NCBI GenBank assembly: GCA_027307335.1
Contig: DAHUXD010000039.1
Span: forward strand, 11,625-75,624
Reading direction: 5' to 3'
DNA length: 64,000 nt
Source of the DNA: Acidobacteriota bacterium
GTDB taxonomy: Bacteria > Acidobacteriota > Thermoanaerobaculia > UBA5066 > Gp7-AA6
Shown here: piece by piece, positions 16,104 to 60,923 of the stretch
Layout: the number at the start of each line of letters is the position of its first letter
Numbering within the stretch: the stretch's first letter is position 1
Translations under genes and position numbers: made by a program
Notes under the pieces: model-generated
The model's input: only the letters and a program-made list of their open reading frames with translations
The model's database searches: none
Told to the model about the DNA's origin: nothing

Positions 16104-16116
16104 GTCTCGGCGGGGA

Positions 16117-21152: not shown

Positions 21153-21749
21153 GTGAGGGGCTCCGTCTTCGTCGGCGTGAGCGTCGACGGGTTCATGGCC
21201 CGCCCCGACGGACGTTTCGACTTTCTTCCCGAGGGCGGCGGCGAGGAGCACGGCTACACGGAGTTCATGGCCTCGGTGGACGCGCTCGTCATCGGCCGCA
21301 AGACCTACGAGGTGGTGCTCGCCTTTCCCGGCTGGGCCTACGGAAAGAAGCCCGTGTACGTCCTGAGCTCGAAGCCTCTCGCGCCGGCGCCCGAGGGCGC
21401 GGTCGTCGAGAGGATGTCGGGCGATCCGCGGGCGATCGCGGCGGCGCTCGACGCGCGCGGCGTCGGGCACGCCTACGTCGACGGCGGCGAGACGATCCAG
21501 GCTTTCCTGCGGGCCGGACTGATCCAGCGGCTGATCGTCACGCGGGTGCCCGTTCTCGTCGGCGAGGGCATTCCGCTCTTCGGCGCCACCGGCGGCGACG
21601 TCGCGCTCCGGCACGTCGAGACGCGCACCTACGCGGGCGGCCTCGTCAAGAGCGAATACGAGGTGCTCGGCTCGCGGCGGAGGAACGCCGCGTCGGAAAC
21701 GCGGGCCTCGCGAAGCGAGGGACGGGGTTCCGAAGGAGAAGGCACGTAA
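21153..21749 (+). CDS. dihydrofolate reductase-family protein (RibD C-terminal-like)
   Basis: SVFVGVSVDGFMARPDG...LVIGRKTYE follows the RibD-C pattern; there is an unusual S/R/E-rich C-terminal tail. Confidence 0.7.
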   Translation: MRGSVFVGVSVDGFMARPDGRFDFLPEGGGEEHGYTEFMASVDALVIGRKTYEVVLAFPGWAYGKKPVYVLSSKPLAPAPEGAVVERMSGDPRAIAAALDARGVGHAYVDGGETIQAFLRAGLIQRLIVTRVPVLVGEGIPLFGATGGDVALRHVETRTYAGGLVKSEYEVLGSRRRNAASETRASRSEGRGSEGEGT

Positions 21750-37844: not shown

Positions 37845-37973
37845 CATCGAGTCGTCTTCGCCGGCCGGTCCTCCATTCTCTCGGGCCGGCTGCCGACGCG
37901 GCGTTCTCCCGCCGCGCGGCGGACGCGTGCGATACTCGCCGCCCGAGAACGTCCGTAACAGGAGAATGACGAC

Positions 37974-44200: not shown

Positions 44201-44581
44201 CAGACGGCGGAGATGACGGCCGGGCCGCACATGCTCGCGCACCTGCGGGACGGGCTCGCGCGCCGCGGCGTGATCCCCGCGCGGGATCTGCCGCGCCGCG
44301 CGGATGGCGACCGCGTCACGACCGCGGGCGCGGTGATCGTGCGGCAGCGGCCGGGGACGGCGAAGGGCTTCGTGTTCCTGACGCTGGAGGACGAGACCGG
44401 GATGCTCCAGGCGATCGTGCGGCCGGACCTGTTCAAGGAGCAGCGGGCGCTCGTCGTCGGCTCGGGCGCGCTGGTGGTCGAGGGCCGCCTCCAGAAGCAG
44501 GACGGCTCGATGTCGGTCAAGGCGGAGCGGTTCTGGACGATCCCGGAGTTCGAGAGCCTGCCGAGCCACGATTTCCGTTAG
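41216..44581 (+). CDS. dnaE2: error-prone DNA polymerase DnaE2 (ImuC)
   Basis: The PHP-domain start YSELRCASAFSFLDGASLPEDLVEEA is followed by Pol III alpha core motifs and a C-terminal OB fold. Upstream of the conserved N-terminus the frame keeps strong GC3 bias, so ATG 41216 is the likely start; GTG 41384 is an alternative. Confidence 0.85.
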   Translation: MADKRHRPSGSAPEMPPSRNMGVGNSSCGGRHSDADPLSSIVSAGARKEKLRHRDFVSSAPRHTKAPPYSELRCASAFSFLDGASLPEDLVEEAARLEIPAVALVDRNGVYGAPRFYKAAKAAGLRAIVGAEVTLEGGDKPRPYKRRPVGAALAAARPAPRLTLLVESRAGYRNLCRLITTGALGKAKGETAVTLDQVAAHAEGLHVLTGGDEGPAARALGKGGLDAAKDLLADLRAIFPGRLHVELQRHHLREEEHRNRALGDLARALKLPLVATNGVRYARTKDKELHDVLTSIRNHVTLDRAGRLLAAQRERHFRGSAAMRELFADRPDAVDAAAELARRLDFTLADLGYRFPEYPLPPGETPSSHLRRLTWNGARARFRPLTAKAQAQIEKELAMIEKLDLAGYFLIVHDVVRFCLEERILVQGRGSAANSAVCYALSITAVDPVKMELLFERFLSEERGEWPDIDLDLPSGDQRERVIQHVYGKYGPHGAGMTANVITYRDRSSAREVAKALGYSPEQVDALSKQLGGWNFGEIREPVEELEGEIAAAGFDPEERRARHFLRLFLQIQNLPRHLGQHSGGIVVAAGRLDEVVPLEPASMPGRVVVQWDKDDCADLGIVKVDLLGLGMLAAIEECIPMISTHEKVAVDLAHLPQDDPAVYGMLNAADTVGLFQVESRAQMASLPRNAPKCFYDIVVQVAIIRPGPIVGGMVHPFFDRRQGRAPVEYPDPCLEPILKRTLGVPLFQEQILKMAMVAAGFSGGEAEELRRAMGFKRSAERMESIETRLRLGMAARGIGEKARDQIVKCITSFALYGFPESHAASFALIAYASAYLKAHHPAAFLAALLNSWPMGFYHPATLVKDAQHHGTRVRPIDATRSGWKCRWEEGAVRLGMRFVKGLREEAGLSVERAQAERPFASIDDLARRSALRPGDLELLAHAGALSGFGKSRREALWQVSKVARRAGPLLDALPTDGVSPLPEMSPIEETRADYQTAEMTAGPHMLAHLRDGLARRGVIPARDLPRRADGDRVTTAGAVIVRQRPGTAKGFVFLTLEDETGMLQAIVRPDLFKEQRALVVGSGALVVEGRLQKQDGSMSVKAERFWTIPEFESLPSHDFR
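41624..41684. repeat. REP-like double-hairpin element, copy 1 (rearranged; in-frame inside dnaE2)
   Basis: GGCGGGGACAAGCCCCGCCCCTAC-13 nt-TAGGGGCGGCCCTTGCGGCCGCCC. The two hairpins and the CCCCTAC/GTAGGGG ends match the intergenic copies. It encodes GGDKPRPYKRRPVGAALAAARP. Confidence 0.55.
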
Positions 44582-47056: not shown

Positions 47057-47098
47057 TCTCTCCCCCCAGCGGGGGGAGAGGGGAGGGTGAGGGGGGAG
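47057..47098. repeat. G-rich hairpin element, copy C
   Basis: CTCTCCCCCC-AGC-GGGGGGAGAG is a perfect 10-bp stem, followed by GGGAGGGTGAGGGGGGAG, related to copies A and B. A second imperfect G/C hairpin lies at 46988-47027. Confidence 0.45.
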
Positions 47099-47137
47099 AA
47101 GGAACTTTCGCGTTGGCGCGGTTTCCCTCCTGACAGA

Positions 47138-50100
47138 ATGCCGACCGTGCTCTCCGTCTCGCAGCGGCTTCGGATCGCCGTCCTCGTGTCGGCGCTCGCG
47201 GGAATCGCGGCGCTCCCCGCCGCGCCGAAGCCCGCTCCGGCCGCAGCGCCCACGTGGGCCGAGGTGGATCGGCTCGTCAAGGACCAGAAGCTCCAGGAGG
47301 CGTCGGGTCTCGTCGACCGCCTCCTCGAATCGGCGAGGGAGCGCCACGACGAGGCCGGCTGGACGAAGGCGCTCGTCCGGGCCGTGCAGCTCCGCATCGG
47401 GCTCGGGAACTACGAGACCGCCGTCCGATTCCTGAAGGAGCAGCCCTGGCCGCCGGGGCTCCTGTCGCAGACGACGCTCGACCTGTTCTATGCGCAGGCG
47501 CTCGTCCAGTACGAGCGCGTCTACTCGTGGGAGATCGCGCAGCGCGAGTCGGTCGTGATCGAAGGCGATCTCGACCTGAAGCTCAAGACCCGCGACCAGC
47601 TCTACGAGGAGGCCCAGGGGGCCTACGCCCGCGTCTGGGCCCGTCGCGCCGAGCTCGGCGCGCTTCCCGTCGGCGTCCTCGCGGAGTACGTGGAACCGAA
47701 CGATTACCCGAAGGACGTCCGCGGCACGCTGCGCGACGCGGTCTCGTATCTCTATGCGGAGCTCCTCGCGGATTCGGCGCTCTGGAAACCGAACCAGGGG
47801 AGCGAGGTCTACCGGCTCGACCTCGCCGCCCTGCTCTCCGAGGACGGGGCCGCGGCGTCCCCGGCGCTCGCGGACCGGAACGCGCACCCGATTTCGAAGC
47901 TCGTCGCCGTTCTCGCCGATCTCGAGTCCTGGCACGCCGGCCGCGGGGATCGTCCGGCGGAGCTCGAGGCGCGGCTCGAGCGCGACCGCCGGCTGCATGC
48001 GGCGTATCCGACCCCCGAGGACCGCGAGCGCATCCGGAAGGACCTCGAGGCGAGACTGACGAAGTACCGGCAGATTCCGTGGTGGTCGATGGGCATGGCG
48101 CGGCTCGCCGAGCTCTGGCAGGCGGAGGACGAGCCGGACAACCTCGTCCACGCGCACGGTTCGGCGCTCGAGGGCGCGCGCGCCTTTCCGGAATCGCCGG
48201 GCGGCGGTCTCTGCGCGCGGATCCTCGACGCGATCGACGCGCCCGACTACCAGCTGACCGCGATGTCCTCGGACGCTCCCGATCGCCGCTCGATCGAAAT
48301 CGTCCACAGGAACCTCCCGCGGCTGTTCTTCCGGATCTACGCCGCGGACCTCGACCGGCGCATCGGCGAGCCGCGCTTCGACCTCAACCCGTCGGCCGAG
48401 GAGGTCCGCGCGCTGGTGCGCTCGGGGCGGCCGGCGTCGGCGTGGACCGAGGGTCTCCCGGCGACGCCGGACTACAAGAACCACCGGACGTTCGTGACGC
48501 CGAAGGCCGGCCGCGGGCTGTGGATCGTCGTCGCCTCGGCCCGCGCCGATTTCGCCGAGAGGGAGAACCGAGTGGTCTCGGTCGCGGTGCTCCTCGGCGA
48601 TCTCGTGATGCTGACCGACGCGGAGACCTCACACGTCGACACTCGCGTGGTCGACGGCTCGGGCGCGGCCGCCTCCGGGGCCGAGGTCACGCTGTACGCC
48701 TTCGACTGGCAGTCGGGGCGCTCGGCGCGCGTCGCCGCGGTCGTGACGGGCGCGGACGGGCTGGCGCGCTTCGACGGGGACCGCTCGGCCGATCGGCGCG
48801 CGCTTTTTCTCGTCGCACGGCGCCTCGGCGACGCCGCCGTGGACCGCAGCGCCTTCTCGCTCACGGCGCGGCCGCCCGCGGCGGAGACGGCCGCCGCGCT
48901 GGTGTACACCGACCGCGCCATCTACCGTCCGCTGCAGACCGTGAAGTGGAAGGTCGTGGCCTACGGCGGCCGCGCGGATCTCGGGCGGTTCCGCGTCTCG
49001 CCGCGGACACCCGTGACCGTCCGGCTGCGCGACCGCAACAACGAGGTCGTCGAGACGGCGACCGCGTTCACCGACGACTACGGCGCGGCGGCCGGCGAGT
49101 TCCGCATTCCCGCGGGGCGCGTGCTCGGCAGCTGGTCCGTCGAGTGCGATCCGAGGGGCTCGGCCGGAATCCAGATCGAGGAATACAAGCGGCCGACCTT
49201 CGAGGTGAAGTGGGAAGCGCCGAACGAGCCGCCGCGTCTCAACCGGCCGGCGGTCCTTCGCGGATCCGCGCGCTACTACTTCGGCCTGCCGGTCTCGGCC
49301 GGAAAGGTCCGCTGGCAGGTCTGGCGCCGCCCGGAGTTCCCGTGGTGGTGGCAGTGGCGCCACCCGTGGGTCGGCCGGGATGGCGGCGGAATCGTCGCGC
49401 AGGGCGAGGCGCCGCTGAAACCGGACGGCACGTTCGAAGCCGCCTTCACGCCGGCGGCCGACGAGCGCGCCGCGGACGCGAAGGAGCTCTCGTACCAGTT
49501 CCGCGCGACCGCGGACGTCACCGACGAGGGCGGAGAGACCCGCTCGGATGCGCGAGCGTTCACGCTCGGCTTCGTCGCGGTGAGCGCCTCGCTCTCGCTC
49601 GAGAGCGGCTTCTTCCGCGCGGGCCGGCCGGGAGTCGTGACGGTTGTGCGAACGGACCTCGACGGCGCGCCGCGGCCGGGCGTGGGAACGTGGCGCCTCG
49701 TTTCGCTCGCGGGTCCCGACCGCGCGCTCCGGCCTTCCGAGGTGCCGGCGCCGCCGCACTTCGACGACACGGTCACGACGCCGGGGGACCGGCTGCGTCC
49801 CCGCTGGGCGACCGCGGAGTCGCTGAGGGTGACGCTCCAGGGCTGGAAGGACGGGCCCGAGAGAGACCGGGGGAGCGTCACGCACGACGCTCAGGGGCGC
49901 GGGCGCATCGACCTCCCGGCCCTTCCCGCGGGCGCCTGGCGCCTGCGGTACGAGACTCGGGACGAATCGGGCGGCGTCTGCGCGCGCGAGGAGGACTTTC
50001 TGGTCGCCGGCGCGACGACGCCGGTGCCGGTCGCGGCGGTGCTGCTCGTCGAGCGAGAGTCCGTCGAGGTGGGGGGCGTCGCCCGCGTCCTCGCCTTCGC

Positions 50101-53100
50101 GGGACTCCCGGGCCAGCCGTGGGTGCTCGAACGCCTCCGGTCGGGCGAAGTCGTCTCGCGCGAGACGCTGTCGGGAGACGCAAAGAGCGTGTTCGAGATT
50201 CCGATCCGCGAGGAGGATCGCGGCGGCTTCGCGCTCCGCCTCTCGCTCGTCTCGGACCACCAGGTGATCACCGAGAGCGCGTCCATCCTCGTCCCGTGGA
50301 CGGACCGGGAGCTCTCGGTGTCGTTCGCCACGTTTCGCGACCGGATCCGGCCCGGCGCTCGGGAGACGTGGCGCGTCACGGTCAAGGCGCCCGCGGGCGC
50401 CGCCGGGGAGGAACGGACCGCGCAGCTCCTGGCTTACATGGTCGACCGCAGCCTCGACGCGTTCGGCGGTTACTACCCGCCGAACCCCCTCTCGCTCTAT
50501 CCGAATCACGCGAACGCGGGATATCTGCGATCGAGCGTCAGCGCCGCGGGCGCCGCCTGGGTCTTCGACAACGCCTTCGGCGCGCGAGGCGCACCCGTGC
50601 TCCTCCATGGCGATCGTCCGAAGTTTCTCGAGGGCTATGGGATCGGGGGCCCGGGCGTGCGGATGTTCGCGCAGCGGGCGATGGCGAAGTCCGAGGCGGG
50701 CGCGGCGAACGCCGCCGTGGATGCGATGAAGGAAGGCGTCGAGGGCGGCCTCGCCGGTGCGCCCGCGCCGGCCTCCGAGCCGGCGCCGGGGAGGGGAGCG
50801 GTCGCGACCGGCGAGGCGCCGCCGTCGCCCGTCCTCCGCAGCGACTTCTCCGAGACCGCGTTCTGGAAGCCGCAGCTGCTGACCGACGCGGACGGCTCCG
50901 CCGTCATCGAGTTCCAGGTGCCCGACTCGGTGACGTCGTGGAACGTCTGGGTCCACGCGATCACCAGGGACATCAAGGCCGGTTCGGTCCACCGCGAGAC
51001 GCGAAGCGTGAAGGACCTGATGGTCCGCCCCTACGTGCCGCGCTTCCTGCGCGAGGACGACCGCGGCGAACTGAAGGTCGTCGTGAACAACGCGTCCGAG
51101 CGGCCCATGAGCGGCACCGTGGCGCTCGACATCCTCGACGCGGAGACGAACCGGAGCGTCCTCGCCGATTTCGGGCTCGCTCCCGACGCCGCCTCCCGCG
51201 CCTTCGCCGCGGCCGCCGGAGGGTCCGCCGACGCCACCTTCACGCTCGCCGCGCCGAAGCGCGTCGGGGCGTATGCGATCCAGGCGACGGCGGTCTCCGG
51301 AGACTTCTCGGACGGGGAATTGCGGCCGGTTCCCGTCCTGCCCGGACGGATGCAGCTTTCGCAGTCGCGCTTCGCGGCCCTGCGGGGCGGCGACACGCGC
51401 ACGCTCTCCTTCGCCGACATGGCGAAGACGGACGACCCGAGCCGGGTGAACGAGCAGCTCGCCGTGACGGTCGACGCGCAGCTGTTCTATTCGGTGCTGA
51501 ATGCGCTTCCCTATCTGGTGAACTATCCGTACGAGTGCGTCGAGCAGACGCTCAACCGCTTCGTCTCGACGGGCATCGTCTCGTCGCTGTTCCGGCAGTA
51601 CCCCGCTGTCGAGAGAATGGCTCAGGACCTCGCGAAGCGCGACACGCCGCTCGAGGCGTGGGCGGCGCCGGATCCGACCCGACGCATGGCGCTCGAGGAG
51701 ACGCCGTGGCTCGAGGAGGCGAAAGGCGGGAAGGGCGCCGGCTCCGGGCTCGTGAAGGTGCTCGATCCGCGCGCGGCGGGGGCCGAGCGCGAGGCGGCCC
51801 TCGCGAAGCTGCGCCGGGCCCAGACCGCGTCGGGGGCCTTCCCGTGGTGGTCCGGCGGGCCGCCGTCGCCCTACATGACGCTGTACGTGATGTACGGCTT
51901 CGCCAAGGCGGCGGAATTCGGCGTCGACGTGCCGAGAGACGTGGTCGCGCGCGGCTGGGCCTACCTCGCCGCGCACTATCGCGGCGAGTACGAGAAGCGC
52001 ATGGCCGCGGACCGCTGCTCGCCGGAGTGGCTGACCTTCCTCGCGTACGTCGCGACGTGCTACCCCGATCCGTCCTGGATGGGCGACGCGCTGACGCGCG
52101 CGGAGCGGGAAGCGATCCTCGCGTTCTCCTTCCGGCACTGGCGGGAGCAGTCGCCGTACCTGAAGGGGATGCTCGCGCTCGCCCTGAAGCGGTCGGGACG
52201 CGGCGACGACGCGCGGCGCGTCTGGGCGAGCATCATGGACTCGTCGAAGACCGACGCCGACCTCGGCACGTACTGGGCGCCGGAGGACCGGGCGTGGCTC
52301 TGGTACGAGGACACGATCGAGACGCAGGCGTTCGCGCTGCGTGCGCTGATGGAGATCTCCCCGACGGATCCGCGCCGGCACGGCCTCGTGCAGTGGCTCT
52401 TCCTGAACAAGAAGCTCAACCAGTGGAAGTCGACGCGGGCGACGGCGGAGGCCCTGTACGCGCTCGTCGCGTACCTGAAGAAGGAGGGCGTGCTGGCGGC
52501 GCGCGAGTCGGTCGCGGTCGCGCTCGCGGGACAGAAGACGGTCTTCGACTTCGAGCCGGATCGGTACACCGGGAGTCGGGACCAGGTCGTCGTGCCGGGG
52601 GAGCGGATCGATCCGAAGCGTGACGCCGACGTGGTGGTGTCGAAGACGGGGACGGGGCTCGCGTTCGCGTCGGCGACCTGGAGCTTCTCGACCGATCGGC
52701 TTCCCGCGGAGGAGCGCGGCGACCTCTTCGCCGTGTCGCGGCGATACTACCGGCACGAGCCCACGCCGTCGGGCGTCGAGCTCCGGCCGCTCGCCGAGGG
52801 GGCGGCGCTTTCGACGGGCGACGAGGTCGAGGTGCAGCTGTCCATCCGCGCGAAGCACGCGGCCGAGTACGTCCACCTGCGCGATCCGCGCGCGGCGGGG
52901 CTCGAGCCGGGCGTCGCGACGTCCGGCTACCGCTGGGACCTCGGCCTCGTCCGCTACGAGGAGATCCGCGACTCGGGCACGAATTTCTTCTTCGAGTGGC
53001 TGCCGGCGGGGGAGTACACGCTGAAGTACCGCGTGCGGGCGAACATGGGCGGCACCTTCCGGGTCGGACCGGCGACGCTCCAGTCGATGTACGCGCCGGA

Positions 53101-53143
53101 GTTCTCGGCCTACTCGGCGGGAACGGTGATTACGGTCCGGTAG
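47138..53143 (+). CDS. alpha-2-macroglobulin family protein (thioester-containing, 2001 aa)
   Basis: A signal peptide (MPTVLSVSQRLRIAVLVSALAGIAALPA), repeated MG-like beta domains, the thioester motif YECVEQT, and an alpha-helical A2M/TED region. Confidence 0.85.
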   Translation: MPTVLSVSQRLRIAVLVSALAGIAALPAAPKPAPAAAPTWAEVDRLVKDQKLQEASGLVDRLLESARERHDEAGWTKALVRAVQLRIGLGNYETAVRFLKEQPWPPGLLSQTTLDLFYAQALVQYERVYSWEIAQRESVVIEGDLDLKLKTRDQLYEEAQGAYARVWARRAELGALPVGVLAEYVEPNDYPKDVRGTLRDAVSYLYAELLADSALWKPNQGSEVYRLDLAALLSEDGAAASPALADRNAHPISKLVAVLADLESWHAGRGDRPAELEARLERDRRLHAAYPTPEDRERIRKDLEARLTKYRQIPWWSMGMARLAELWQAEDEPDNLVHAHGSALEGARAFPESPGGGLCARILDAIDAPDYQLTAMSSDAPDRRSIEIVHRNLPRLFFRIYAADLDRRIGEPRFDLNPSAEEVRALVRSGRPASAWTEGLPATPDYKNHRTFVTPKAGRGLWIVVASARADFAERENRVVSVAVLLGDLVMLTDAETSHVDTRVVDGSGAAASGAEVTLYAFDWQSGRSARVAAVVTGADGLARFDGDRSADRRALFLVARRLGDAAVDRSAFSLTARPPAAETAAALVYTDRAIYRPLQTVKWKVVAYGGRADLGRFRVSPRTPVTVRLRDRNNEVVETATAFTDDYGAAAGEFRIPAGRVLGSWSVECDPRGSAGIQIEEYKRPTFEVKWEAPNEPPRLNRPAVLRGSARYYFGLPVSAGKVRWQVWRRPEFPWWWQWRHPWVGRDGGGIVAQGEAPLKPDGTFEAAFTPAADERAADAKELSYQFRATADVTDEGGETRSDARAFTLGFVAVSASLSLESGFFRAGRPGVVTVVRTDLDGAPRPGVGTWRLVSLAGPDRALRPSEVPAPPHFDDTVTTPGDRLRPRWATAESLRVTLQGWKDGPERDRGSVTHDAQGRGRIDLPALPAGAWRLRYETRDESGGVCAREEDFLVAGATTPVPVAAVLLVERESVEVGGVARVLAFAGLPGQPWVLERLRSGEVVSRETLSGDAKSVFEIPIREEDRGGFALRLSLVSDHQVITESASILVPWTDRELSVSFATFRDRIRPGARETWRVTVKAPAGAAGEERTAQLLAYMVDRSLDAFGGYYPPNPLSLYPNHANAGYLRSSVSAAGAAWVFDNAFGARGAPVLLHGDRPKFLEGYGIGGPGVRMFAQRAMAKSEAGAANAAVDAMKEGVEGGLAGAPAPASEPAPGRGAVATGEAPPSPVLRSDFSETAFWKPQLLTDADGSAVIEFQVPDSVTSWNVWVHAITRDIKAGSVHRETRSVKDLMVRPYVPRFLREDDRGELKVVVNNASERPMSGTVALDILDAETNRSVLADFGLAPDAASRAFAAAAGGSADATFTLAAPKRVGAYAIQATAVSGDFSDGELRPVPVLPGRMQLSQSRFAALRGGDTRTLSFADMAKTDDPSRVNEQLAVTVDAQLFYSVLNALPYLVNYPYECVEQTLNRFVSTGIVSSLFRQYPAVERMAQDLAKRDTPLEAWAAPDPTRRMALEETPWLEEAKGGKGAGSGLVKVLDPRAAGAEREAALAKLRRAQTASGAFPWWSGGPPSPYMTLYVMYGFAKAAEFGVDVPRDVVARGWAYLAAHYRGEYEKRMAADRCSPEWLTFLAYVATCYPDPSWMGDALTRAEREAILAFSFRHWREQSPYLKGMLALALKRSGRGDDARRVWASIMDSSKTDADLGTYWAPEDRAWLWYEDTIETQAFALRALMEISPTDPRRHGLVQWLFLNKKLNQWKSTRATAEALYALVAYLKKEGVLAARESVAVALAGQKTVFDFEPDRYTGSRDQVVVPGERIDPKRDADVVVSKTGTGLAFASATWSFSTDRLPAEERGDLFAVSRRYYRHEPTPSGVELRPLAEGAALSTGDEVEVQLSIRAKHAAEYVHLRDPRAAGLEPGVATSGYRWDLGLVRYEEIRDSGTNFFFEWLPAGEYTLKYRVRANMGGTFRVGPATLQSMYAPEFSAYSAGTVITVR

Positions 53144-53191
53144 GGGCGGCCCTCGTGGCCGCCCGCGGGCGGGGACGAGCGCCGCCCCTAC
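53140..53191. repeat. REP-like double-hairpin element, copy 2
   Basis: GTAGGGG-hairpin-GCG-hairpin-CCCCTAC. The TAG at 53141-53143 is the A2M stop. The CTA at 53188-53190 is the stop of the convergent YceI gene. Confidence 0.65.
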
Positions 53192-53787
53192 CGCTTTGAA
53201 GGCACCCGCGTCGCCAGCAGACTGATGTCCACGGTGACCGTGTTGCCCGCGACCTTCGCCTCGGGATTGCCCGTCCACGCCATGCCGAACTCGCGCCGAT
53301 CGAACGCGAGCGTCGCGTGGATGCCGAGGCGGTCGTCCGGGTGCGGGCCGTCGAAGCGGCCGCGGATCTCGAAGGGAAGAGTGATCTCCTTCGTCACGCC
53401 ATGGACCGCCAGAGGTCCGACCGCTTCCCACCGCCCCTTGACCTTGCGGATGCGCCGGCTCTCGAAGCGGATCTCCGGGTACTTCTGGGCGTCCAGGAAC
53501 GCCGGGGCCCGCAGCCGCGCGTCCCAGGATTCGCTCCCGGTCGCGATGCTCGAGGTCTCGATGACCGCGACGACCTTCGCCTGCGAGAGGTCCCGCGCCT
53601 TGCCGGCCGACATCTTCACGTCGTAGCGCATGAACTTCCCGGTGATCTTCGAGACACCGAGCACGGGCACGGAGAACTGCACGTTCGAGTGCTCGACGTC
53701 CAGCGTGTAGTCGGCGGCGCGCAGCACGGTCGAGAGCAGGAGAAAAAGGGCCGCGGCGGCGCCGGCGCGACGAAACGTGGTTCGCAT
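53188..53787 (-). CDS. YceI-family periplasmic protein
   Basis: A signal peptide is followed by YTLDVEHSNVQFSVPVLGVSKITGKF and a YceI-like beta-barrel pattern. Confidence 0.8.
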   Translation of the reverse strand: MRTTFRRAGAAAALFLLLSTVLRAADYTLDVEHSNVQFSVPVLGVSKITGKFMRYDVKMSAGKARDLSQAKVVAVIETSSIATGSESWDARLRAPAFLDAQKYPEIRFESRRIRKVKGRWEAVGPLAVHGVTKEITLPFEIRGRFDGPHPDDRLGIHATLAFDRREFGMAWTGNPEAKVAGNTVTVDISLLATRVPSKR

Positions 53788-53850
53788 GGTGTGCTCGGCC
53801 GATCTTATCCGGGCGCGAAGATAGAATCCCCCCGCTCTTTCGGAGGAACA
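53788..53850. promoter_or_regulatory. divergent promoter region between yceI-like and M1 peptidase genes
   Basis: AT-richer, with a TAGAAT -10-like hexamer and GGAGGA before the M1 peptidase ATG. Confidence 0.25.
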
Positions 53851-56697
53851 ATGAGACGCTTCGCCGCCGCCCTGGCGCTCGCTCTGGCGCCGCTCGCCGC
53901 CCTCGCGCAGGTCCTGCCCGGCCACCGCCTGCCCGACGGGGCCGACCGCCCGGTCCGGGACCGCGCGTACCACATCGAGAAATACGTCGCGGAGCTCTCC
54001 TTCGACATGGAGAAGGAGGAGATCGCCGGAACGGCGACGGTCACGTTCCAGTCGCTGCGGGCGCCGCTCGACACGCTCTCGCTCGACGCGGCGCGGCTCG
54101 ACGTCTCGCGCGTCGAGCGCGACGGAAAGCCTCTCCAGTTCCAGGTGGATTCGAAGAACTTCAAGCTGAACGTGGCGCTCGGAGCGCCGCTCCCGCTGGG
54201 CCAGTCCGCCACCGTCCGCGTCGCCTATCGCGCGCACCCGCGGGTCGGTCTCTACTTCTTCCCCGGCTCCGGCAAGGAGGAGGCGCAGGCCTGGAACTAC
54301 GGCGAGGGAGGCCTGCACGATGCCTGGCTCCCGATCTACAACGACACGAACGACCGCTTCGCCGTCGAGTTCGTGGTGACCGTTCCGAAGGGTTTCACCG
54401 CCGTGTCGAACGGAACGCTCGAGGGGCCCAGGGAGAACGCCGATGGCTCGCGCACGTTCCACTGGGTCGAAGAGAAGCCGATCCCGAATTACCTGATGAC
54501 CGTCGACGTCGGCCACTTCGCGCGGGTGCCGCTCGCGGATGCGAAGGTCGGCGACCGGTCGGTGCCGCTGGCCGTGTGGACGCGACCCGGCGGCGAGGAC
54601 GCCGCCCGGTACACGTTCGGCGACACGCCGAAGATGGTCGAGTTCTTCTCGCAGAAGATGGGCTACCCGTACCCGTGGGTGAAATACGACCAGGTCGTCG
54701 TCCGCGACTTCGCGGTCGGCGCGATGGAGACCACGACCGCGACGGGCTTCGGCGCCTCGCACGTCCACGTCGCGGGCGATCCGCCCGACTCGGGCCCCGA
54801 CTTCTCCGAGGCGTGGCCCGTCTTCACGGTCGAGGACACGATCTCGCACGAGCTCGCGCACCACTGGTTCGGCGACCTCGTGACCTGCCGCTCGATCGGA
54901 TCGATCTGGCTGAACGAGTCCTTCGCGACGTTCTGGCACACGGTCTGGAACCAGCACGCCCACGGCGAGGACGACCTGACCTACCAGCGCTGGTGGTACC
55001 TGAACAAGTACGTCGACCACACCCGGGAGACGGGCGAGGTTCGCCCGATGGAGTACCTGAAGTACACGGAGCCGACCGCGATGTATCAGGAGGAGCTGAC
55101 GTACGTGAAGGGCTCCCTCGTCCTCCACATGCTGCGGCACTTCCTCGGCGACGAGGACTTCTACCGGATGATCGCGTCGTACCTGCAGCGGCACCAGTTC
55201 GGCAGCGTCGAGTCGGCGGACCTCTACGAGGCGATCGAGCTCGCCGCGGGGCACAACTTCTCGTGGTTCTTCCAGGACTGGATCGTCGGGGGCGGAGGGC
55301 ATCCCCGGTTCGACGTCTCCTACCGGTGGGTCCCCGAGCGCCAGCAGGTCGACGTCACGGTCAAGCAGATCCAGGCGGACCTGCCGTTCGAGAACGACTT
55401 CCGGCTGCCGGTCGAGATCGAGGTCGTGGATGCCTCCGGCGCGGCCGCGACGCACCGCGTGGAGCTTTCGCGCTGGTCGACGACGGTGGCGCTGCCGGCG
55501 GCGAGCCGGCCGCGGCGCGTCACGTTCGATAAGGGCGGCTGGCTCGTGTGCGAGGTCAAGTACGAGCGGCCGATCGGCGAGGTGCTCGACGAGCTCGACC
55601 ACGCGGACCTCTCGAACCGCCTTCGGGCCGCGCCGCAGCTCGCGGACGACTTCGGCCGCGAACCGCGCGCCGTCGCGGCGCTGTCGCGGGTCCTCGCCGA
55701 CCCGGCGTCGCACTGGGGCCTCAAGCAGGAGGCGGCGCTCGACCTCGGCCGCGCGGGCGGGGCCTCGGCGGCGCGCGCGCTCGAGAAGGCGCTCGCGTCG
55801 GAGCCGAACCCGCGCGTGCGCCGCGCGGTCGCCATCGGCCTCGGCACGTGCGGCGAGGCGTCGTCGGCCGCGGCTCTCCGTCGCGCCGTCGAGACCGACC
55901 GCGCCGAGGACGTGATCGGCGCCGCCGAGATCTCCCTCGGGCGGATCGGCGCTGCGGGCACGAAGGACTTCCTCGTCCGGCAGCTCGCGCGGGACTCGCG
56001 CTGGTGGGACTCGATCCGGGTGTCGGCAGTCAGCGGCCTCGGCAAGCTCGACGATCCGACGCTCGCCGGCACGTTCTCCGGATACACCGATCCGAAATAC
56101 GTTCCGGAGCTCCGGTCGGCCGCGCTTTCGGGATGGCTCGCCGCCGCCCCGGACGATCCGAATCTGTCGGCCGCGCTCCGCACGCTGACGAACGACCGCA
56201 ATCGCGGGATCCGCGAGGACGCGGTCAAGAAGCTCGCCGCGCTCCACCACGCGTCGGACCTCGCGCTGCTCAAGGAGCTCGAGGCAGATCCGGATCCGAC
56301 GATCGCCTACTTCGCGAAGGCGGGGGCGGAGGAGACGGAGGGTTTCGTGAAACGGTATGGGCGGGGCTTGTCCCCGCCCGCTCGCGGGCGGCCGCAAGGG
56401 CCGCCCCTACGGCGGAGTGAGCCTCAGGCCGCGGCCTCCCCGTCCCTCACGATCCTTCCGTCCTTGATCTCCACCACCCGTCCCGCGCGCCGGGCGAGCG
56501 TCAGGTCGTGCGTGATGACGACGAGCGTCGAGCCCTGCTGCCAGAGCTCGGTGAAGAGGCCCATGATGTCGCCGCCGGCCGAAGTGTCGAGGTTCCCGGT
56601 CGGCTCGTCCGCGAGGATCACGTCCGGCTTCATCGCGAGCGCGCGGGCGATCGCGACTCGCTGCATCTGCCCGCCCGAGAGCTCGGTCGGCTTGTGA
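53851..56697 (+). CDS. M1-family zinc aminopeptidase (aminopeptidase N-like); ORF as read extends past the probable ancestral stop at 56356-56358
   Basis: A signal peptide, the GAMEN-like VGAMETT, HELAHHWFGDLVT (HEXXH) and NESFATF, and C-terminal HEAT-like repeats. The last ~113 codons are S/P/R-rich and antisense to the ABC ATPase gene. Confidence 0.8.
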   Translation: MRRFAAALALALAPLAALAQVLPGHRLPDGADRPVRDRAYHIEKYVAELSFDMEKEEIAGTATVTFQSLRAPLDTLSLDAARLDVSRVERDGKPLQFQVDSKNFKLNVALGAPLPLGQSATVRVAYRAHPRVGLYFFPGSGKEEAQAWNYGEGGLHDAWLPIYNDTNDRFAVEFVVTVPKGFTAVSNGTLEGPRENADGSRTFHWVEEKPIPNYLMTVDVGHFARVPLADAKVGDRSVPLAVWTRPGGEDAARYTFGDTPKMVEFFSQKMGYPYPWVKYDQVVVRDFAVGAMETTTATGFGASHVHVAGDPPDSGPDFSEAWPVFTVEDTISHELAHHWFGDLVTCRSIGSIWLNESFATFWHTVWNQHAHGEDDLTYQRWWYLNKYVDHTRETGEVRPMEYLKYTEPTAMYQEELTYVKGSLVLHMLRHFLGDEDFYRMIASYLQRHQFGSVESADLYEAIELAAGHNFSWFFQDWIVGGGGHPRFDVSYRWVPERQQVDVTVKQIQADLPFENDFRLPVEIEVVDASGAAATHRVELSRWSTTVALPAASRPRRVTFDKGGWLVCEVKYERPIGEVLDELDHADLSNRLRAAPQLADDFGREPRAVAALSRVLADPASHWGLKQEAALDLGRAGGASAARALEKALASEPNPRVRRAVAIGLGTCGEASSAAALRRAVETDRAEDVIGAAEISLGRIGAAGTKDFLVRQLARDSRWWDSIRVSAVSGLGKLDDPTLAGTFSGYTDPKYVPELRSAALSGWLAAAPDDPNLSAALRTLTNDRNRGIREDAVKKLAALHHASDLALLKELEADPDPTIAYFAKAGAEETEGFVKRYGRGLSPPARGRPQGPPLRRSEPQAAASPSLTILPSLISTTRPARRASVRSCVMTTSVEPCCQSSVKRPMMSPPAEVSRFPVGSSARITSGFIASARAIATRCICPPESSVGL
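56355..56410. repeat. REP-like double-hairpin element, copy 3 (leading GTAGGGG altered to GTATGGG)
   Basis: TATGGGCGGGGCTTGTCCCCGCCC-GCTCGC-GGGCGGCCGCAAGGGCCGCCC-CTAC. Confidence 0.65.
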
Positions 56698-57113
56698 TCC
56701 ATGCGATCGCCGAGGCCGACCTTCGTCAGGAGCTCCACGACCCGCTCGCGCCGCTTCCTCGGCGGCACGCCCCCGAAGAGGAGCGGCAGCTCGACGTTCT
56801 CGAAGGCCGAGATCTGCGACAGGAGATTGAAGCCCTGGAAGACGAAGCCGACGCGGCGGTTGCGCACGTCGGCGAGCGCGTCGCGCGTGAACTTCGAGAC
56901 GTCCTCGCCGCCCAGGCGGTACCGCCCCTCGGTCGGCGTGTCGAGGCAGCCGATCAGGTTCATCAGCGTGGACTTCCCGGAACCCGACGGCCCGACGACC
57001 GCCACGAACTCGCCCTGCTGAACGGAGAAGTCGATGCCCATCAGGGCCTCGACCTTCACCTTGCCGGTGTCGTACACCTTCCGGATCCCCTGCATCTCGA
57101 TGATGGCGGTCAT
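56424..57113 (-). CDS. ABC transporter ATP-binding protein (MacB/LolD-like ATPase)
   Basis: Walker A GPSGSGKST, signature LSGGQMQRVAIARAL, Walker B ILADEPTGNLD. Confidence 0.85.
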   Translation of the reverse strand: MTAIIEMQGIRKVYDTGKVKVEALMGIDFSVQQGEFVAVVGPSGSGKSTLMNLIGCLDTPTEGRYRLGGEDVSKFTRDALADVRNRRVGFVFQGFNLLSQISAFENVELPLLFGGVPPRKRRERVVELLTKVGLGDRMDHKPTELSGGQMQRVAIARALAMKPDVILADEPTGNLDTSAGGDIMGLFTELWQQGSTLVVITHDLTLARRAGRVVEIKDGRIVRDGEAAA

Positions 57114-57125
57114 GGCATCTCCATC

Positions 57126-57196
57126 GGGGTCAGGTCTCTAGAAGAGCGTTCTCGTCTCATTTCTGGACCAAACCGCTCATTGAGAGACCTGACCCC
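57126..57196. repeat. structured inverted-repeat element, copy 2 (GGGGTCAGGTCTCT...AGAGACCTGACCCC)
   Basis: Perfect 14-bp terminal stems around a ~43-nt loop. It fills the gap between the permease stop and the ATPase start. Confidence 0.55.
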
Positions 57197-57197
57197 A

Positions 57198-58454
<1,257 letters not shown>

Positions 58455-58465
58455 GGCTTCGATCG

Positions 58466-59701
58466 CTACAGCTTCATCGCGACCACGGGGTCGAGACGCG
58501 AGGCCTCGCGCGCCGGGAAGTAGCCCGCGACGAGGCCGGTCAGCCCGAGGACCGCCGCGGTCAGGAGCGCGACGCCCATCGAGACGTCCGGATCGCCGAC
58601 GTACTGCGTCACCTTGAAGGACGGGAAGACCGCGCAGACCGCCATCGAGATCCCGAAGCCCACGAGCCCGCCCATCGCGGTGATGAGCAGCGTCTCGAGC
58701 AGGAACTGGCGCAGGATCCACGGCGTCTTCGCGCCGAGGGCCATCTTGATGCCGATCTCCTTGGTGCGCTCCTCGACGACGACGTTCATGATGTTCGACA
58801 CCCCGATGCCGCCGACGATGAGGGTGAACGAGCCGATGATGCCGAGGAACAGCCGGAACGACAGGAAGAACGTCGCGAGGAACGCGAACTGCTCGGTCGC
58901 GTCCCAGACCGAGAAGGCCTCCTTGTCCTCGGGATCGAACCGCTGGCGGCCCGCGAGCACGCGGCGCACGCCGTCGGTGACGGCCTTGCTGTCCTTCATG
59001 ACCGCAGGCTGGTAGATGAGGTTGTCGACCCACTTCGAGCCCGTCAGCGCGCGGAACGTCGTGCCGGGAATGAAGCCCTTGCCGTTGTCGCGGCCGCTGT
59101 AGCTCGACTGCTGGATCTTCTCCTCGAGGACGCCGATCACGAGGAACGGCGAGCCCTTCAGCATCACCGTCTTGCCGACCGGGTCGGTCCCCTTGCCGAA
59201 GACCTGCTCGGCGAGCTTCCAGCCGATGAAGAGGACGCGCCGCTGCTCGTCCATGTCGGTCGGGTTGATGAACCGGCTGCCCGGCTGCGGGTTGATGTTG
59301 CGCATGAAGCCGAACTCCGGTGCAACGCCGGACACGTCGACCGCGACCGTCTTCGTTCCGTAGTTCATCTTCATCGTGTCCGAGTACTCGCTCGAGACCG
59401 CGCGGATGCCCGGCGCCTGCCGGCGGATCGCCTCGACGTCGTCCTCGTTGATGCGGATCTTCCGCCCCTTGCCGAGCCCCTCGAACGGGATCGACGTGAG
59501 GCCCGGCCAGGCGATGCAGATGCCGTCGCCGAGGCCCGCGGCGTTGACCACCATCTGGCTCTGCATGCCCTTGCCGAAGGCGAGGAGCAGCGTGACGGAG
59601 ACCGTTCCCCAGACGATGCCGAAGACGGTCAGGAACGTGCGCAGCTTCTGGCTGCGCATGTCGCGCCACATCTGGCGGAGGGCGTCGCGGAGGGAGAGCA
59701 C
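58466..59701 (-). CDS. ABC transporter permease (FtsX/MacB-like), first of two
   Basis: MLSLRDALRQMWRDMRSQKLRTFLTVFGIVWG...EERTKEIGIKMALGA shows FtsX topology. Confidence 0.8.
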   Translation of the reverse strand: MLSLRDALRQMWRDMRSQKLRTFLTVFGIVWGTVSVTLLLAFGKGMQSQMVVNAAGLGDGICIAWPGLTSIPFEGLGKGRKIRINEDDVEAIRRQAPGIRAVSSEYSDTMKMNYGTKTVAVDVSGVAPEFGFMRNINPQPGSRFINPTDMDEQRRVLFIGWKLAEQVFGKGTDPVGKTVMLKGSPFLVIGVLEEKIQQSSYSGRDNGKGFIPGTTFRALTGSKWVDNLIYQPAVMKDSKAVTDGVRRVLAGRQRFDPEDKEAFSVWDATEQFAFLATFFLSFRLFLGIIGSFTLIVGGIGVSNIMNVVVEERTKEIGIKMALGAKTPWILRQFLLETLLITAMGGLVGFGISMAVCAVFPSFKVTQYVGDPDVSMGVALLTAAVLGLTGLVAGYFPAREASRLDPVVAMKL

Positions 59702-59715
59702 GTCAGAGATCCGTC

Positions 59716-59767
59716 GTAGGGGCGGGGCTCGTCCCCGCCCGCGGGCGGCCGCAAGGGCCGCCCCTAC
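59716..59767. repeat. REP-like double-hairpin element, copy 4
   Basis: GTAGGGGCGGGGCTCGTCCCCGCCC-GCG-GGCGGCCGCAAGGGCCGCCC-CTAC. Confidence 0.65.
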
Positions 59768-59804
59768 GTTGCCGCGGCTCGGCCGGGTTCATCGACGAAA
59801 AATC

Positions 59805-60923
59805 CTAGTCGACGGCCGACGTCAGCTTCTTCGGCGGCCGCTCCAGGACCTTCGCCCCCATCGAGAGGCCATCGACCACCTGGGTCGTCAGCCCGTCGGA
59901 GACGCCGAGCTTGACCGCGACCTTCTTCGCCGGCTCCTTCGGGGTCGCGCCCGGCAGCTCGACGGAGGTCTTCTTGCCGCCGTCCTCGAAGATCACGACG
60001 CGCTCGGGGATCGTCGGGACGTCCTTGACCTCGCGGATGATCAGGTCCGCGTTGGCGGAGTAGCCCGCGCGGAGCGTGATGTGGGAGGCCGGGTCGAGCT
60101 CGATCTCGACGTCGAAGAGCGTCGCGCCCTCCTTCTGCTGTGCCTGCGGCGCGATGCGCGAGACCTTTCCCGTGACGACGTCGGTCGGCAGCGCGCCGAC
60201 CTTGATGCGCGCGATCATGCCGGCGTGGAGCTTGCCGACGTCGATCTCGTCCACCGTGCCCTTGAAGATCAGGTCGCCCATGTCGGCGATCGCGGCGAGC
60301 TCCGTGCCCGGCTGGTACGAGGTCAGCGGTACGACCGGGTCGCCCGGGTTCACGGCGCGCGTCAGGACGGTGCCCGCCGCGGGCGCGCGGATGATCGACT
60401 CCATGTTGACCGTCTCGGTCGTGATCTTGCCGTTGCGGGTCAGGTCGCGCTGCTGCTCGGCCTTCGCGACGGCCACCTTCGCGAGCTCGTACGCTTCGCG
60501 CTTGACGTCGAGGTCCGACGTCGGAAGCACGCCGTCCTTCGACAGCTGCTGGGCCCGATCGAACTCCGCCTTCGCCCGGTCCAGGGTCGCGCGCGTCGAG
60601 TCGAGCTGTCGGTCGACGTCGGTCAGCTCCTGCGGCGTCGGGTCCGGCGCGATCTCCAGGAGCGCGTCGCCGGGCCTCACGCGGTCGCCGACGTTGACCA
60701 TGCAGCGCTTGACGATGCCCGAGATCTTGGACTTGATCGAGAACTTCTGACGGGGCTGGATCTGGCCGACGGCGAGGGCCTTCTCGGTGATCGAGCCCTT
60801 CTCGACGGTCACCAATTTCCGGTCGCCGTCGGCGCCCTTGCCGTTCCGGGTCAGGGCGTACACGCCCGCCGCGGCGGCGACCAGCACGAAAAGCAGCAGC
60901 AGCGTCTTGAAGAGCCTGGACAT
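59805..60923 (-). CDS. efflux periplasmic adaptor (HlyD/MacA-like membrane fusion protein)
   Basis: An N-terminal anchor, coiled-coil, lipoyl and beta-barrel segments; GGGAGGA precedes the ATG at 60923. Confidence 0.8.
   Translation of the reverse strand: MSRLFKTLLLLFVLVAAAAGVYALTRNGKGADGDRKLVTVEKGSITEKALAVGQIQPRQKFSIKSKISGIVKRCMVNVGDRVRPGDALLEIAPDPTPQELTDVDRQLDSTRATLDRAKAEFDRAQQLSKDGVLPTSDLDVKREAYELAKVAVAKAEQQRDLTRNGKITTETVNMESIIRAPAAGTVLTRAVNPGDPVVPLTSYQPGTELAAIADMGDLIFKGTVDEIDVGKLHAGMIARIKVGALPTDVVTGKVSRIAPQAQQKEGATLFDVEIELDPASHITLRAGYSANADLIIREVKDVPTIPERVVIFEDGGKKTSVELPGATPKEPAKKVAVKLGVSDGLTTQVVDGLSMGAKVLERPPKKLTSAVD

Follow-up and report, generated by a model that had tools for sequence, protein, structure and literature searches.

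The window, that is, the whole 64-kb stretch of DNA analysed here, contains eight GC-rich repeat units of 25 nt each, all between 41.6 and 59.8 kb and grouped in four pairs. Three of the four pairs are extragenic, of which two follow the ends of convergent genes and the third is internal to an operon, and the remaining one is intragenic and in frame. The units and the genes that they touch are the following.

41216–44581, plus strand: dnaE2, error-prone DNA polymerase; intact ORF of 1121 codons, start codon uncertain
41623–41647, minus strand: REP unit, GG type, reading GTAG GGGCGGGG cttgt CCCCGCCC on this strand; forms the left side of the dnaE2 heads-in pair and encodes GGDKPRPY
41648–41659: 12-nt spacer between the inward heads (...CCCCTAC-12 nt-GTAGGGG...)
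41660–41684, plus strand: REP unit, CC type, GTAG GGGCGGCC cttgc GGCCGCCC; forms the right side of the same pair and encodes VGAALAAA
47087–53143, plus strand: alpha-2-macroglobulin (A2M) gene, ending on a TAG (53141–53143) within the REP head
53140–53164, plus strand: REP unit, CC type; its GTAG head holds the A2M stop
53167–53191, minus strand: REP unit, GG type; one stem position is mismatched (GGGCGGCG/CCCCGCCC, within 53167–53187); its head holds the YceI stop (CTA at 53188–53190 of the plus strand)
53188–53787, minus strand: gene for a YceI-family protein of 199 aa, with the head TAG as its stop
56355–56379, plus strand: REP unit, GG type; head GTAT in the window, GTAA in the public contig L001
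56386–56410, minus strand: REP unit, CC type, 6 nt (GCTCGC) from its partner and 13 nt beyond the stop codon of an ABC ATPase gene (56424–56426)
59716–59740, plus strand: REP unit, GG type; one member of a heads-out pair that, in a minus-strand operon, separates the HlyD-like adaptor gene from the first MacB-type permease gene
59743–59767, minus strand: REP unit, CC type, 2 nt (GC) from its partner

Anatomy of the repeats and their place in host genes

Each unit is composed of GTAG, an 8-bp stem (GGGCGG followed by GG or CC), a 5-nt loop CTYGY and the complementary arm, and the stem base starts with three consecutive G-C pairs (GGG...CCC). The GTAG lies directly at the hairpin foot in seven of the eight units, the exception being the unit at 56355. 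The pattern GGGCGGSSN5SSCCGCCC gave eight matches in the window compared to a mean of 0.02 in dinucleotide shuffles, and a looser GTAG-hairpin search of the window returned the same eight units and no others. The source-genome sequence covered consists of the window, with its eight units, plus some 17.6 kb from a public contig that is nearly identical to it.

Every unit has a partner in inverted orientation, and each pair combines one GG with one CC unit. The first-pass annotation had placed four copies at these positions, which holds except that the first unit starts at 41623, and had described every copy as GTAG...CTAC, which is right for three pairs and not for 41623–41684, where the heads face inward. 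The spacers of the heads-out pairs are GC in the 53140 and 59716 pairs and GCTCGC in the 56355 pair, not the GCG given before. Over 52 nt, complementarity between the 53140 and 59716 pairs reaches 94%.

The 41623–41684 pair, previously counted as intergenic, sits in frame inside dnaE2. It encodes 22 low-complexity residues in a surface loop of the PHP domain, a hypervariable one flanked by 'VGAEVTL' and 'PRLTLLVE', and the ORF is unbroken. Between the convergent A2M and YceI genes the only spacer is the common 52-bp palindrome, and the ORF ends bear out that its terminal TAG and CTA are the stops of the two genes. At the M1 peptidase gene, positions 56356–56358 of the REP head form the stop codon in the public contig L001; a single base change at 56358 apparently removes this stop in the window, which would give a read-through of 114 codons.

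Other classes of repeat were considered. A CRISPR array and integron attC sites were dropped, as the spacing is not regular and neither cas genes nor an integrase lie nearby. Rfam 15 gave no match at the gathering score over the whole window. By inspection, the three heads-out pairs have no common flanking direct repeats of the kind left by a MITE-type target-site duplication. A full-text literature search with the exact REP sequence and the REP-encoded peptide VGAPLVGA returned no relevant papers.

Distribution across genomes and RAYT genes

The identical 25-mer, loop included, is present in at least 118 genome stretches from many phyla, among them Acidobacteriota, Chloroflexota, Bacteroidota, Firmicutes, Gammaproteobacteria, Desulfobacterota and Planctomycetota, together with compensatory stem variants. 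The family is not restricted to this lineage, contrary to what had been suggested. The 118 fetched stretches hold at least 155 matches, counting those listed. Among these listed matches, the two free stem positions, whose complementarity is not demanded by the search pattern, are complementary in 149 of 155 (GG/CC in 85, CC/GG in 38, GC/GC in 20 and CG/CG in 6), and the loops include CTTGT (48), CTTGC (41), TTTAT (15) and CTCGT (13). When five stem positions were freed, perfect 8-bp stems were found in 211 of 239 candidates, compared to about 50 with shuffled arms, and 20 stem variants were present. The GG and CC pair with a GC spacer also occurs in other genomes (loci L093, L038 and L113). 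Among viral contigs, 86 stretches carry 99 matches, of which 91 have stems that are complementary; these stretches hold no RAYT ORF, and the result says nothing about the vector.

No RAYT gene was detected in the window when its six-frame ORFs were compared with E. coli RayT and an iterated profile. The RAYT search matched in four fetched loci only, where Y1_Tnp ORFs related to E. coli RayT stand beside or around REPs of this type: L037 (Rheinheimera), L073 (Dehalococcoidia), L088 (Ktedonobacteraceae) and L057 (Longimicrobiaceae). These ORFs belong to a family of more than 7,900 members, many of them named 'REP element-mobilizing transposase RayT'. About 100 of the 108 RAYT members examined encode in-frame REP pairs between the HUH and Tyr motifs (VGAxLxxA...RAxxxxAPT), and the encoded inserts include the GG type (VGAGLVPA) and the CC type (RAAARAAPT) of the window; at L073 and L213 the REP inside the RAYT gene was confirmed at the DNA level. 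Neither of the RAYT matches bearing the REP types of the window comes from its source assembly.

REP pairs within RAYT genes are not new: they are described for TnpA_REP subclass 2.4, whose other published traits are a stem base of three G-C pairs and a patchy occurrence over several phyla (Quentin et al. 2018, PMC6006769). In the classification by Bertels et al. 2017 (PMC5581495), this subclass is RAYT Group 4. The Y1_Tnp gene found in L123, at the spot orthologous to the ATPase-peptidase junction, was rejected as the cognate RAYT: the 310-aa protein is of another type, the repeats on either side of the gene are different ones (GGGGTCAACGCTGAAwTCCTGAATC) and REPs like those of the window are absent from L123.

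Orthologous sites and the order of stop codons and elements

The sites were compared with those of close relatives of this Thermoanaerobaculia genome. In L121, which is syntenic and whose YceI is 89% identical, no REP is found at any of the three sites, and the HlyD-MacB junction measures only 4 nt. In L122 (92%), a pair whose spacer measures 16 nt stands at the YceI end and an extra pair lies between the DUF5916 and A2M genes, while L124 and L125 (74%) have no REP at the YceI and peptidase junctions. Since close relatives have no pairs at these sites, or have pairs elsewhere, copies appear to be gained and lost. Deletion could account for part of this pattern, judging by L123, whose HlyD-MacB junction holds a possible collapsed remnant, GCGGGCCGCGGGCG.

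In orthologues without REP, a TAG stands at the aligned stop of YceI (L121, L123, L124 and L125) and of the M1 peptidase (L121, L122, L123, L124 and L125), and at the same codon of A2M in L121. These ancestral-type stops are nearly always preceded by G. The protein C-termini are conserved in length (...TVITVR* versus ...SMVMVR*; ...GFVKR versus ...KFLKK*), and in a JGI contig only 1 nt separates the two stops, too little for an element to fit in. As the REP-free orthologues already carry (G)TAG, the elements lie against ancestral stops that they did not themselves provide; on these alignments, the stops touched by the REP heads predate the arrival of the elements.

A relation between heads and gene ends is also seen across genomes. 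For 165 REP heads, an incoming ORF of at least 120 codons ends between −90 and +200 nt of the head in 88 cases, and 24 of these 88 end exactly on the head TAG, compared to at most 2 at any other single position. One explanation would be that a REP, or a REP pair, integrates just 3' of a pre-existing GTAG, so that one head is host-derived and G-preceded TAG stops, common in GC-rich genomes, act as landing pads. This would resemble the behaviour of IS200/IS605 elements, whose insertions fall 3' of a fixed tetranucleotide, and the stop/head overlap would run opposite to the published reading. Such a target rule agrees with the cross-genome peak and with the coincidence of three heads with ancestral GTAG stops, which random insertion in spacers of 20–85 nt would seldom produce; moreover, the different Y1-transposase element of L123, with ends GTAG-GGGTCAACGCTGAAATCCTGAATC, begins exactly on the GTAG stop of the peptidase. 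However, pairs away from stops, i.e. 59716–59767 and many loci elsewhere, carry both heads, so that the GTAG would usually move with the element, and the HlyD-MacB insertion amounts to 97 nt relative to L121, whose empty site has no GTAG. At A2M/YceI both heads lie on stops, for which a one-sided single insertion does not account; the E. coli TnpA_REP uses GTAG as a protein-bound guide and cleaves at CT (PMC3479197); and the peak could also result from survivorship, if only in-frame TAG insertions near gene ends are tolerated. Integration next to a GTAG is, consequently, a tentative proposal that we consider possible and on balance rather unlikely.

The reverse order, in which the elements inserted in or beside gene 3' ends and their terminal TAG and CTA became the stops, as the first-pass annotation had it, is improbable. 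It would fit the position of the A2M and YceI stops, and of the M1 peptidase stop in the public contig, within REP heads, as well as the 24 exact ORF ends, and it is in line with the statement that GTAG termini 'often provide' a TAG stop, the overlap of TAG with ORF ends being a described property of GTAG REPs (Di Nocera et al., PMC3733652). Nevertheless, for A2M, YceI and the M1 peptidase it is largely refuted by what the orthologue alignments suggest, namely a TAG at the aligned codon where no REP is present, the constant C-terminal lengths and the closely spaced stops of the JGI contig.

Hairpins in RNA and the nature of the elements

The predicted free energies of the pairs range from −43 to −53 kcal/mol. 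The 53140 pair is predicted to form one long hairpin, with fold z-scores of −4.6 and −6.0 for the two strands, and two separate hairpins are predicted for each of the 56355, 59716 and 41623 pairs. Two pairs have weak z-scores (−1.4 and −1.95), because any sequence so rich in GC folds well. Like Rho-independent terminators, the extragenic pairs place a GC-rich hairpin just 3' of gene ends; unlike them, they are followed by no U-rich tract (flanks of the heads-out pairs, CGCTTTGAAGG, GGCGGAGTG and GTTGCCGCGG), and their sequence is common to several sites and phyla. No T-run follows any pair and a terminator and promoter scan of 52500–60500 flags none of them, so that they are not classical terminators, a role once proposed for them. 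E. coli REPs located after gene ends or inside operons stabilise the upstream mRNA and, by analogy, mRNA stabilisation by the present hairpins is plausible. Once transcribed, they would probably shield upstream mRNA from 3' exonucleases, and a hairpin starting at a stop codon may impede translation termination, E. coli REPs located within 15 nt of a stop being reported to lower expression; these RNA-level effects would be side effects and not the reason why the elements exist.

That the hairpins are host regulatory elements evolved in place (factor-independent terminators or operon-internal mRNA stabilisers) and not mobile DNA would agree with their strong predicted folds and with their location after gene ends and between hlyD and macB, as for the mRNA-stabilising E. 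coli REPs, but is very unlikely in view of the missing T-runs and negative terminator scan, of the same 25-mer at unrelated sites in many phyla, which argues against an origin in place, of orthologous sites in close relatives that have no pair though the operon is kept, and of the pair inside a coding sequence.

The anatomy of the units, the stability of the hairpins, the stem covariation, the wide distribution, the adjacency or inclusion in RAYT genes elsewhere and the presence or absence in relatives, all shown by the analysis, point instead to GTAG-tagged REPs that form inverted heterodimers, as BIMEs and REPINs do, and are very probably of the type associated with RAYT/TnpA_REP subclass 2.4. 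The label REP/BIME-type given initially is therefore retained, with a GTAG head at the foot of a GC-rich hairpin, inverted pairs of two types, and units flanking or inside RAYT genes elsewhere. For this genome, we infer mobilisation by a RAYT. The unit would act as a single-strand DNA hairpin with a 5' GTAG 'foot', and a RAYT, an HUH/tyrosine nuclease related to the IS200 transposases, would recognise both foot and hairpin; single-stranded GTAGGGGCGGGGCTTGTCCCCGCCC is the predicted substrate of binding and cleavage by a subclass 2.4 RAYT. Acting in trans on these non-autonomous elements, the enzyme would nick and rejoin single-stranded DNA, so that copies may be added or lost at permissive places, such as gaps after genes, gaps within operons and flexible protein loops where the repeat reads in frame.

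The closest published relatives are the GTAG REPs (Di Nocera, De Gregorio, Rocco 2013, BMC Genomics 14:522, PMC3733652). They share the 5' GTAG at the foot of a GC-rich stem of 6–9 bp with a short loop, the organization in HH dimers (GTAG outside), TT dimers (GTAG inside) and heterodimers differing in the stem, partners 1–2 bp apart in some families, head TAGs over ORF stops and in-frame intragenic copies, including in dnaE2. They differ in that the window consensus GTAGGGGCGGSSCTYGYSSCCGCCC was not found in the text or supplements of that paper, in that Thermoanaerobaculia are outside its sample and in that its REPs 'provide' the stop, whereas the orthologues of the window point to stops first. 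The subclass 2.4 REPs (PMC6006769), termed 'canonical long REP', likewise have a stem base made of three G-C pairs in a row, show 'double foot' forms GTAG...CTAC and are patchily spread over many phyla; the RAYTs reported here are assigned to this subclass by matching the published description, not by profiles.

As in E. coli BIMEs and Pseudomonas REPINs (Bertels and Rainey 2011, PMC3116915), the unit of organization is two inverted REPs that are predicted to fold as one long hairpin or as two, and units of two types take turns in orientation, like Y and Z in BIMEs. The differences are the spacing, which in P. fluorescens REPINs is roughly 70 bp from the conserved 16-mer of one end to that of the other, compared to 2–12 nt in the window spacers, the stem bulge of E. 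coli REPs, compared to perfect 8-bp stems here, and the cognate RAYT, of subclass 2.2 in E. coli and 2.5 in Pseudomonas versus, very probably, 2.4 here. Rickettsia palindromic elements (RPE) and similar in-frame palindromes resemble the dnaE2 REP pair, which inserts residues and does not break the ORF, but RPEs are CGTC-tagged or longer and have no known RAYT, while the window element is a GTAG REP.

Heterodimers, overlap with stop codons and insertion in dnaE2 are already published, and the family belongs to a well-described class of small mobile DNA; taken alone, the REPs of the window raise no new question. For annotation, the 25-mers explain the 52-bp spacer between A2M and YceI, the 22-residue insert of DnaE2 and the apparent read-through at 56358. 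If the tentative integration rule were true, REP/RAYT systems would have a target rule like the fixed tetranucleotide of IS200/IS605. For REP biology, the locus adds a Thermoanaerobaculia example to a multi-phylum REP type, with clean filled and empty orthologous sites, and stops that predate the elements would be a small correction to the usual account of stop-codon overlap.

REP pairs of the window and their gene context

The repeat is a 25-nt unit present eight times in the window, as established by reading the four sites and searching the whole stretch. Each unit comprises a GTAG head, a stem arm (GGGCGG extended by GG or CC, which defines the GG and CC types), a 5-nt loop that, written head-first, is CTTGT, CTTGC or CTCGT, and the complementary arm. 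The stems are perfect in seven of the eight units, with a single mismatch in 53167-53187, and seven heads read GTAG, the 56355 head being GTAT. The pattern GGGCGGSSN5SSCCGCCC exhibited 8 matches in the window, against 0.02 expected from dinucleotide shuffles, so that the repeats reported in the first-pass annotation are real, with corrections. Its single formula for all four copies describes the three heads-out pairs, and fails for 41623-41684, where the heads lie inside; in the same way, the 53140, 56355 and 59716 pairs are intergenic as proposed, while the fourth is in frame within the dnaE2 ORF. Every pair combines one GG-type and one CC-type unit. The gene context was obtained from Pfam scans and from the gene calls of L001, a near-identical public contig (DAHVCS010000256.1, GCA_027313945.1) with 4 differences from the window over 17.6 kb (56358, 55634, 55662, 57546).

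REP pairs and adjoining genes in the window
41623-41684, heads-in pair, 12 nt between heads, in frame inside dnaE2
47087..53143, plus strand, A2M gene, stop TAG at 53141-53143 in a REP head
53140-53191, heads-out pair, spacer 2 nt, between convergent A2M and YceI
53188..53787, minus strand, YceI gene, stop CTA at 53188-53190 in a REP head
56355-56410, heads-out pair, spacer 6 nt, between M1 peptidase (plus) and ABC ATPase (minus)
56424..57113, minus strand, ABC ATPase gene, across the 56355-56410 pair from the M1 peptidase
..59701, minus strand, first of two MacB-type permease genes, one side of the 59716-59767 pair
59716-59767, heads-out pair, spacer 2 nt, inside the minus-strand operon, in the gap between HlyD-like adaptor and MacB-type permease
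59805.., minus strand, HlyD-like adaptor gene, other side of the 59716-59767 pair

In L001 the M1 peptidase (835 aa) terminates at a TAA that falls in the REP head (GTAA), at 56356-56358. At 56358 the window has T instead of A, which turns the stop into TAT; the peptidase ORF, left without a stop, reads through the pair and 95 further codons to 56697, antisense to the ABC ATPase gene. Either strain variation or a sequencing error may account for this difference. Two tandem MacB-type permease paralogues (57198-59701; 418 and 411 aa, about 70% DNA identity across matching segments) share one operon with the HlyD-like adaptor and the ABC ATPase.

The ORF that contains the 41623-41684 pair is intact and 1121 codons long, its domains being PHP, pol III alpha, finger, HHH and OB; its homologues in Thermoanaerobaculia are named error-prone DNA polymerase (DnaE2), and the pair encodes GGDKPRPY-KRRP-VGAALAAA. 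As this reading frame is unbroken, a surface loop probably accommodates the insert. In an alignment of 24 homologues, 'VGAEVxL' and 'PRLTLLVE' bracket a hypervariable loop of the PHP domain, the insert differing in nearly every homologue (RHPEERSDEGS, GPLGLVPDPPPPGTP and IQNPKSKIQN in Thermoanaerobaculia, for example). In L123, a related Thermoanaerobaculia locus, the loop (about 16040-16215) is filled by another palindrome family, CCCTCTCCCC...GGGGAGAGGG. From these sequences, the loop appears to be a hotspot at which repeats of several families insert. REP insertions in dnaE2 of O. terrae (Oter_4053) and S. wittichii (Swit_1119) are reported by Di Nocera et al. (PMC3733652).

Two other repeats were observed. 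A palindromic family at 47058-47097, between DUF5916 and A2M (CTCTCCCCCC-n-GGGGGGAGAG then GGGAGGGTGAGGGG), also occupies the YceI-A2M spacer of the related locus L121 (about 10600-10650) and the L123 dnaE2 loop. A small conserved hairpin motif, CGCGGCGG(G/A)AGAACGCCGCG-T(C/T)GG, is present at 21673-21740, 40141-40208 and, inverted, 37888-37919; two copies are 81% identical across 68 nt, one lies upstream of dnaE2, and the motif has no Rfam match.

Distribution across phyla and link to RAYT transposases

A search of other genomes, which the first-pass annotation had suggested, was made by scanning a genome collection with GTAGGGGCGGSSN5SSCCGCCC and matched at least 118 stretches. Among the matches listed are Acidobacteriota/Thermoanaerobaculia, Chloroflexota, Hymenobacter, Rheinheimera, Flavonifractor/Oscillospiraceae, Desulfobacterota, Planctomycetota, Verrucomicrobiota and others; head, loop and stem are thus common to many phyla among these matches, and the family is not confined to this lineage. 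The two free stem positions are complementary in 149 of the 155 matches listed (GG/CC, CC/GG, GC/GC, CG/CG), and the loops of the 155 are overwhelmingly CTTGT, CTTGC, CTCGT or TTTAT. When five stem positions were freed, 211 of 239 candidates presented perfect 8-bp stems, compared with about 50 with shuffled arms, in twenty stem variants (e.g. GGGCGACC, GGGCACCC, GGGCAGGC). The complementarity and the excess of perfect stems therefore indicate that the hairpin is selected, and head and loop are conserved from phylum to phylum. GG+CC pairs with a GC spacer recur elsewhere, including in an Acidobacteriota MAG and in Flavonifractor.

IMG/VR contigs also carry REPs of the window type (86 stretches, 99 matches, 91 with complementary stems, same loops), with no RAYT ORF near the REPs in these 86 stretches; the stretches could represent the flanks of prophages, or host DNA binned as viral.

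The six-frame ORFs of every fetched locus and of the window were searched with E. coli RayT as seed. Y1_Tnp ORFs adjoining or enclosing REPs were found at L037, L073, L088 and L057, each from a different phylum, whereas the window yielded none. More than 7,900 proteins matched a profile built from these ORFs, many of them titled 'REP element-mobilizing transposase RayT'. In about 100 of 108 members inspected, the stretch from the HUH motif to 'LGxVVGAFKS' is an in-frame heads-out REP pair (VGAxLxxA ... RAxxxxAPT), verified on the DNA of L073 and of L213, another fetched locus. Some members contain the window's own units, VGAGLVPA being GTAGGGGCGGGGCTTGTCCCCGCCC and RAAARAAPT GGGCGGCCGCAAGGGCCGCCCCTAC. 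The GTAG-headed hairpin pairs, with like units adjoining or within RAYT genes elsewhere, bear out the proposed REP/BIME-type identity. The pairs inside RAYT genes are no novelty, since Quentin et al. 2018 (PMC6006769) already described in-frame REPs inside TnpA_REP subclass 2.4 genes. According to that paper, this subclass (RAYT Group 4 of Bertels) is distributed patchily over multiple phyla, and its REPs are of the long canonical kind, have three G-C pairs at the base of the stem and include 'double foot' GTAG...CTAC forms.

Two RAYT genes of the REP-containing subfamily occur in type I restriction-modification clusters (L213 3001-3633, GCA_020723325.1; L215 2266-2862, GCA_900175155.1), one flanked by two HsdM-like genes, the other immediately upstream of HsdR. 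Both share overlapping start/stop codons with adjacent genes, and neither is flanked by REPs within 3 kb. At L057 1700-2560, a Longimicrobiaceae RAYT gene is broken into two overlapping frames and contains seven internal REP units (1768-2274), apparently degraded by growth of its own REPs.

Predicted folding and turnover among relatives

All pairs are predicted to fold strongly (-43 to -53 kcal/mol), the 53140 pair as one long hairpin (z-scores -4.6 and -6.0) and the others as two hairpins each. The suggested terminator role is not supported: no pair is followed by a T-run, and none was called in a terminator scan of 52500-60500. By analogy with E. coli, it is plausible that the pairs shield upstream mRNA from 3' exonucleases. 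E. coli REPs at most 15 nt from a stop lower translation (cited in PMC12306157), and a similar effect is plausible here; the 59716 pair could favour the adaptor over the permease, and A2M and YceI output could be lowered by the 53140 pair.

Syntenic loci of related Thermoanaerobaculia were reached through YceI homologues. The 20 kb of L121 (YceI 89% identical) contain no REP, and the pairs are therefore not essential; the HlyD-MacB gap of L121 is 4 nt, the window being 97 nt longer there. In L122 (92%), the YceI end carries a heads-out pair (spacer 16 nt), and a further pair lies between DUF5916 and A2M, a position without a REP pair in either the window or L121. No REP occurs at the YceI and peptidase junctions of L123, L124 and L125 (81-74%). 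Copies have therefore been gained and lost over a short evolutionary scale, as would be expected of mobile REPs. Some absences may be deletions, the L123 HlyD-MacB junction holding a possible collapsed remnant.

In L123, the spot of the window's 56355 pair holds another element:
6190-7440 of L123 (GCA_035506175.1, DATJPZ010000142.1), 310-aa Y1_Tnp gene, between ABC ATPase and M1 peptidase

It is flanked by inverted GGGGTCAACGCTGAAwTCCTGAATC copies and (GTAGGGGCGGG)x2-3, and could belong to the TIRYT-like or the long-form Y1 elements.

Stop codons at the REP heads

The A2M and YceI stops do lie within the element ends, as first noted. For 88 of the 165 REP heads in the fetched loci and the window, an ORF of 120 codons or more runs towards the head and ends between -90 and +200 nt of it; 24 of these end exactly on the head TAG, any other position being used at most twice. 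According to Di Nocera et al. 2013 (PMC3733652), the TAG stop is one that GTAG termini 'often provide'. However, the claim that the elements supply the stops is contradicted by REP-free orthologues, which carry TAG at the aligned codon. This is the case for YceI in L121, L123, L124 and L125 (with G before it in three of four); in the same way, the M1 peptidase stop is G-TAG in L121, L122, L123, L124 and L125, and A2M of L121 ends ...VR-TAG, all at REP-free sites. Only 1 nt separates the YceI end from the A2M end in a JGI contig. It follows that the stop codons are ancestral, with the REP heads falling on them.

The coincidence could have either of two explanations. One is survivorship, the insertions that persist being those that preserve the stop. 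The other, insertion at a pre-existing GTAG, is somewhat less likely than not. It is supported by the unrelated Y1 transposase element of L123, which likewise starts exactly at the peptidase's GTAG, but a simple GTAG-target rule is at odds with pairs remote from stop codons having both heads, with an empty HlyD-MacB site lacking GTAG, and with the E. coli TnpA_REP, described as cleaving at CT with GTAG as a protein-bound guide (PMC3479197).

The literature on GTAG REPs and subclass 2.4 RAYTs already covers every notable feature of these repeats; the one mildly new point is that the stop codons predate the elements.
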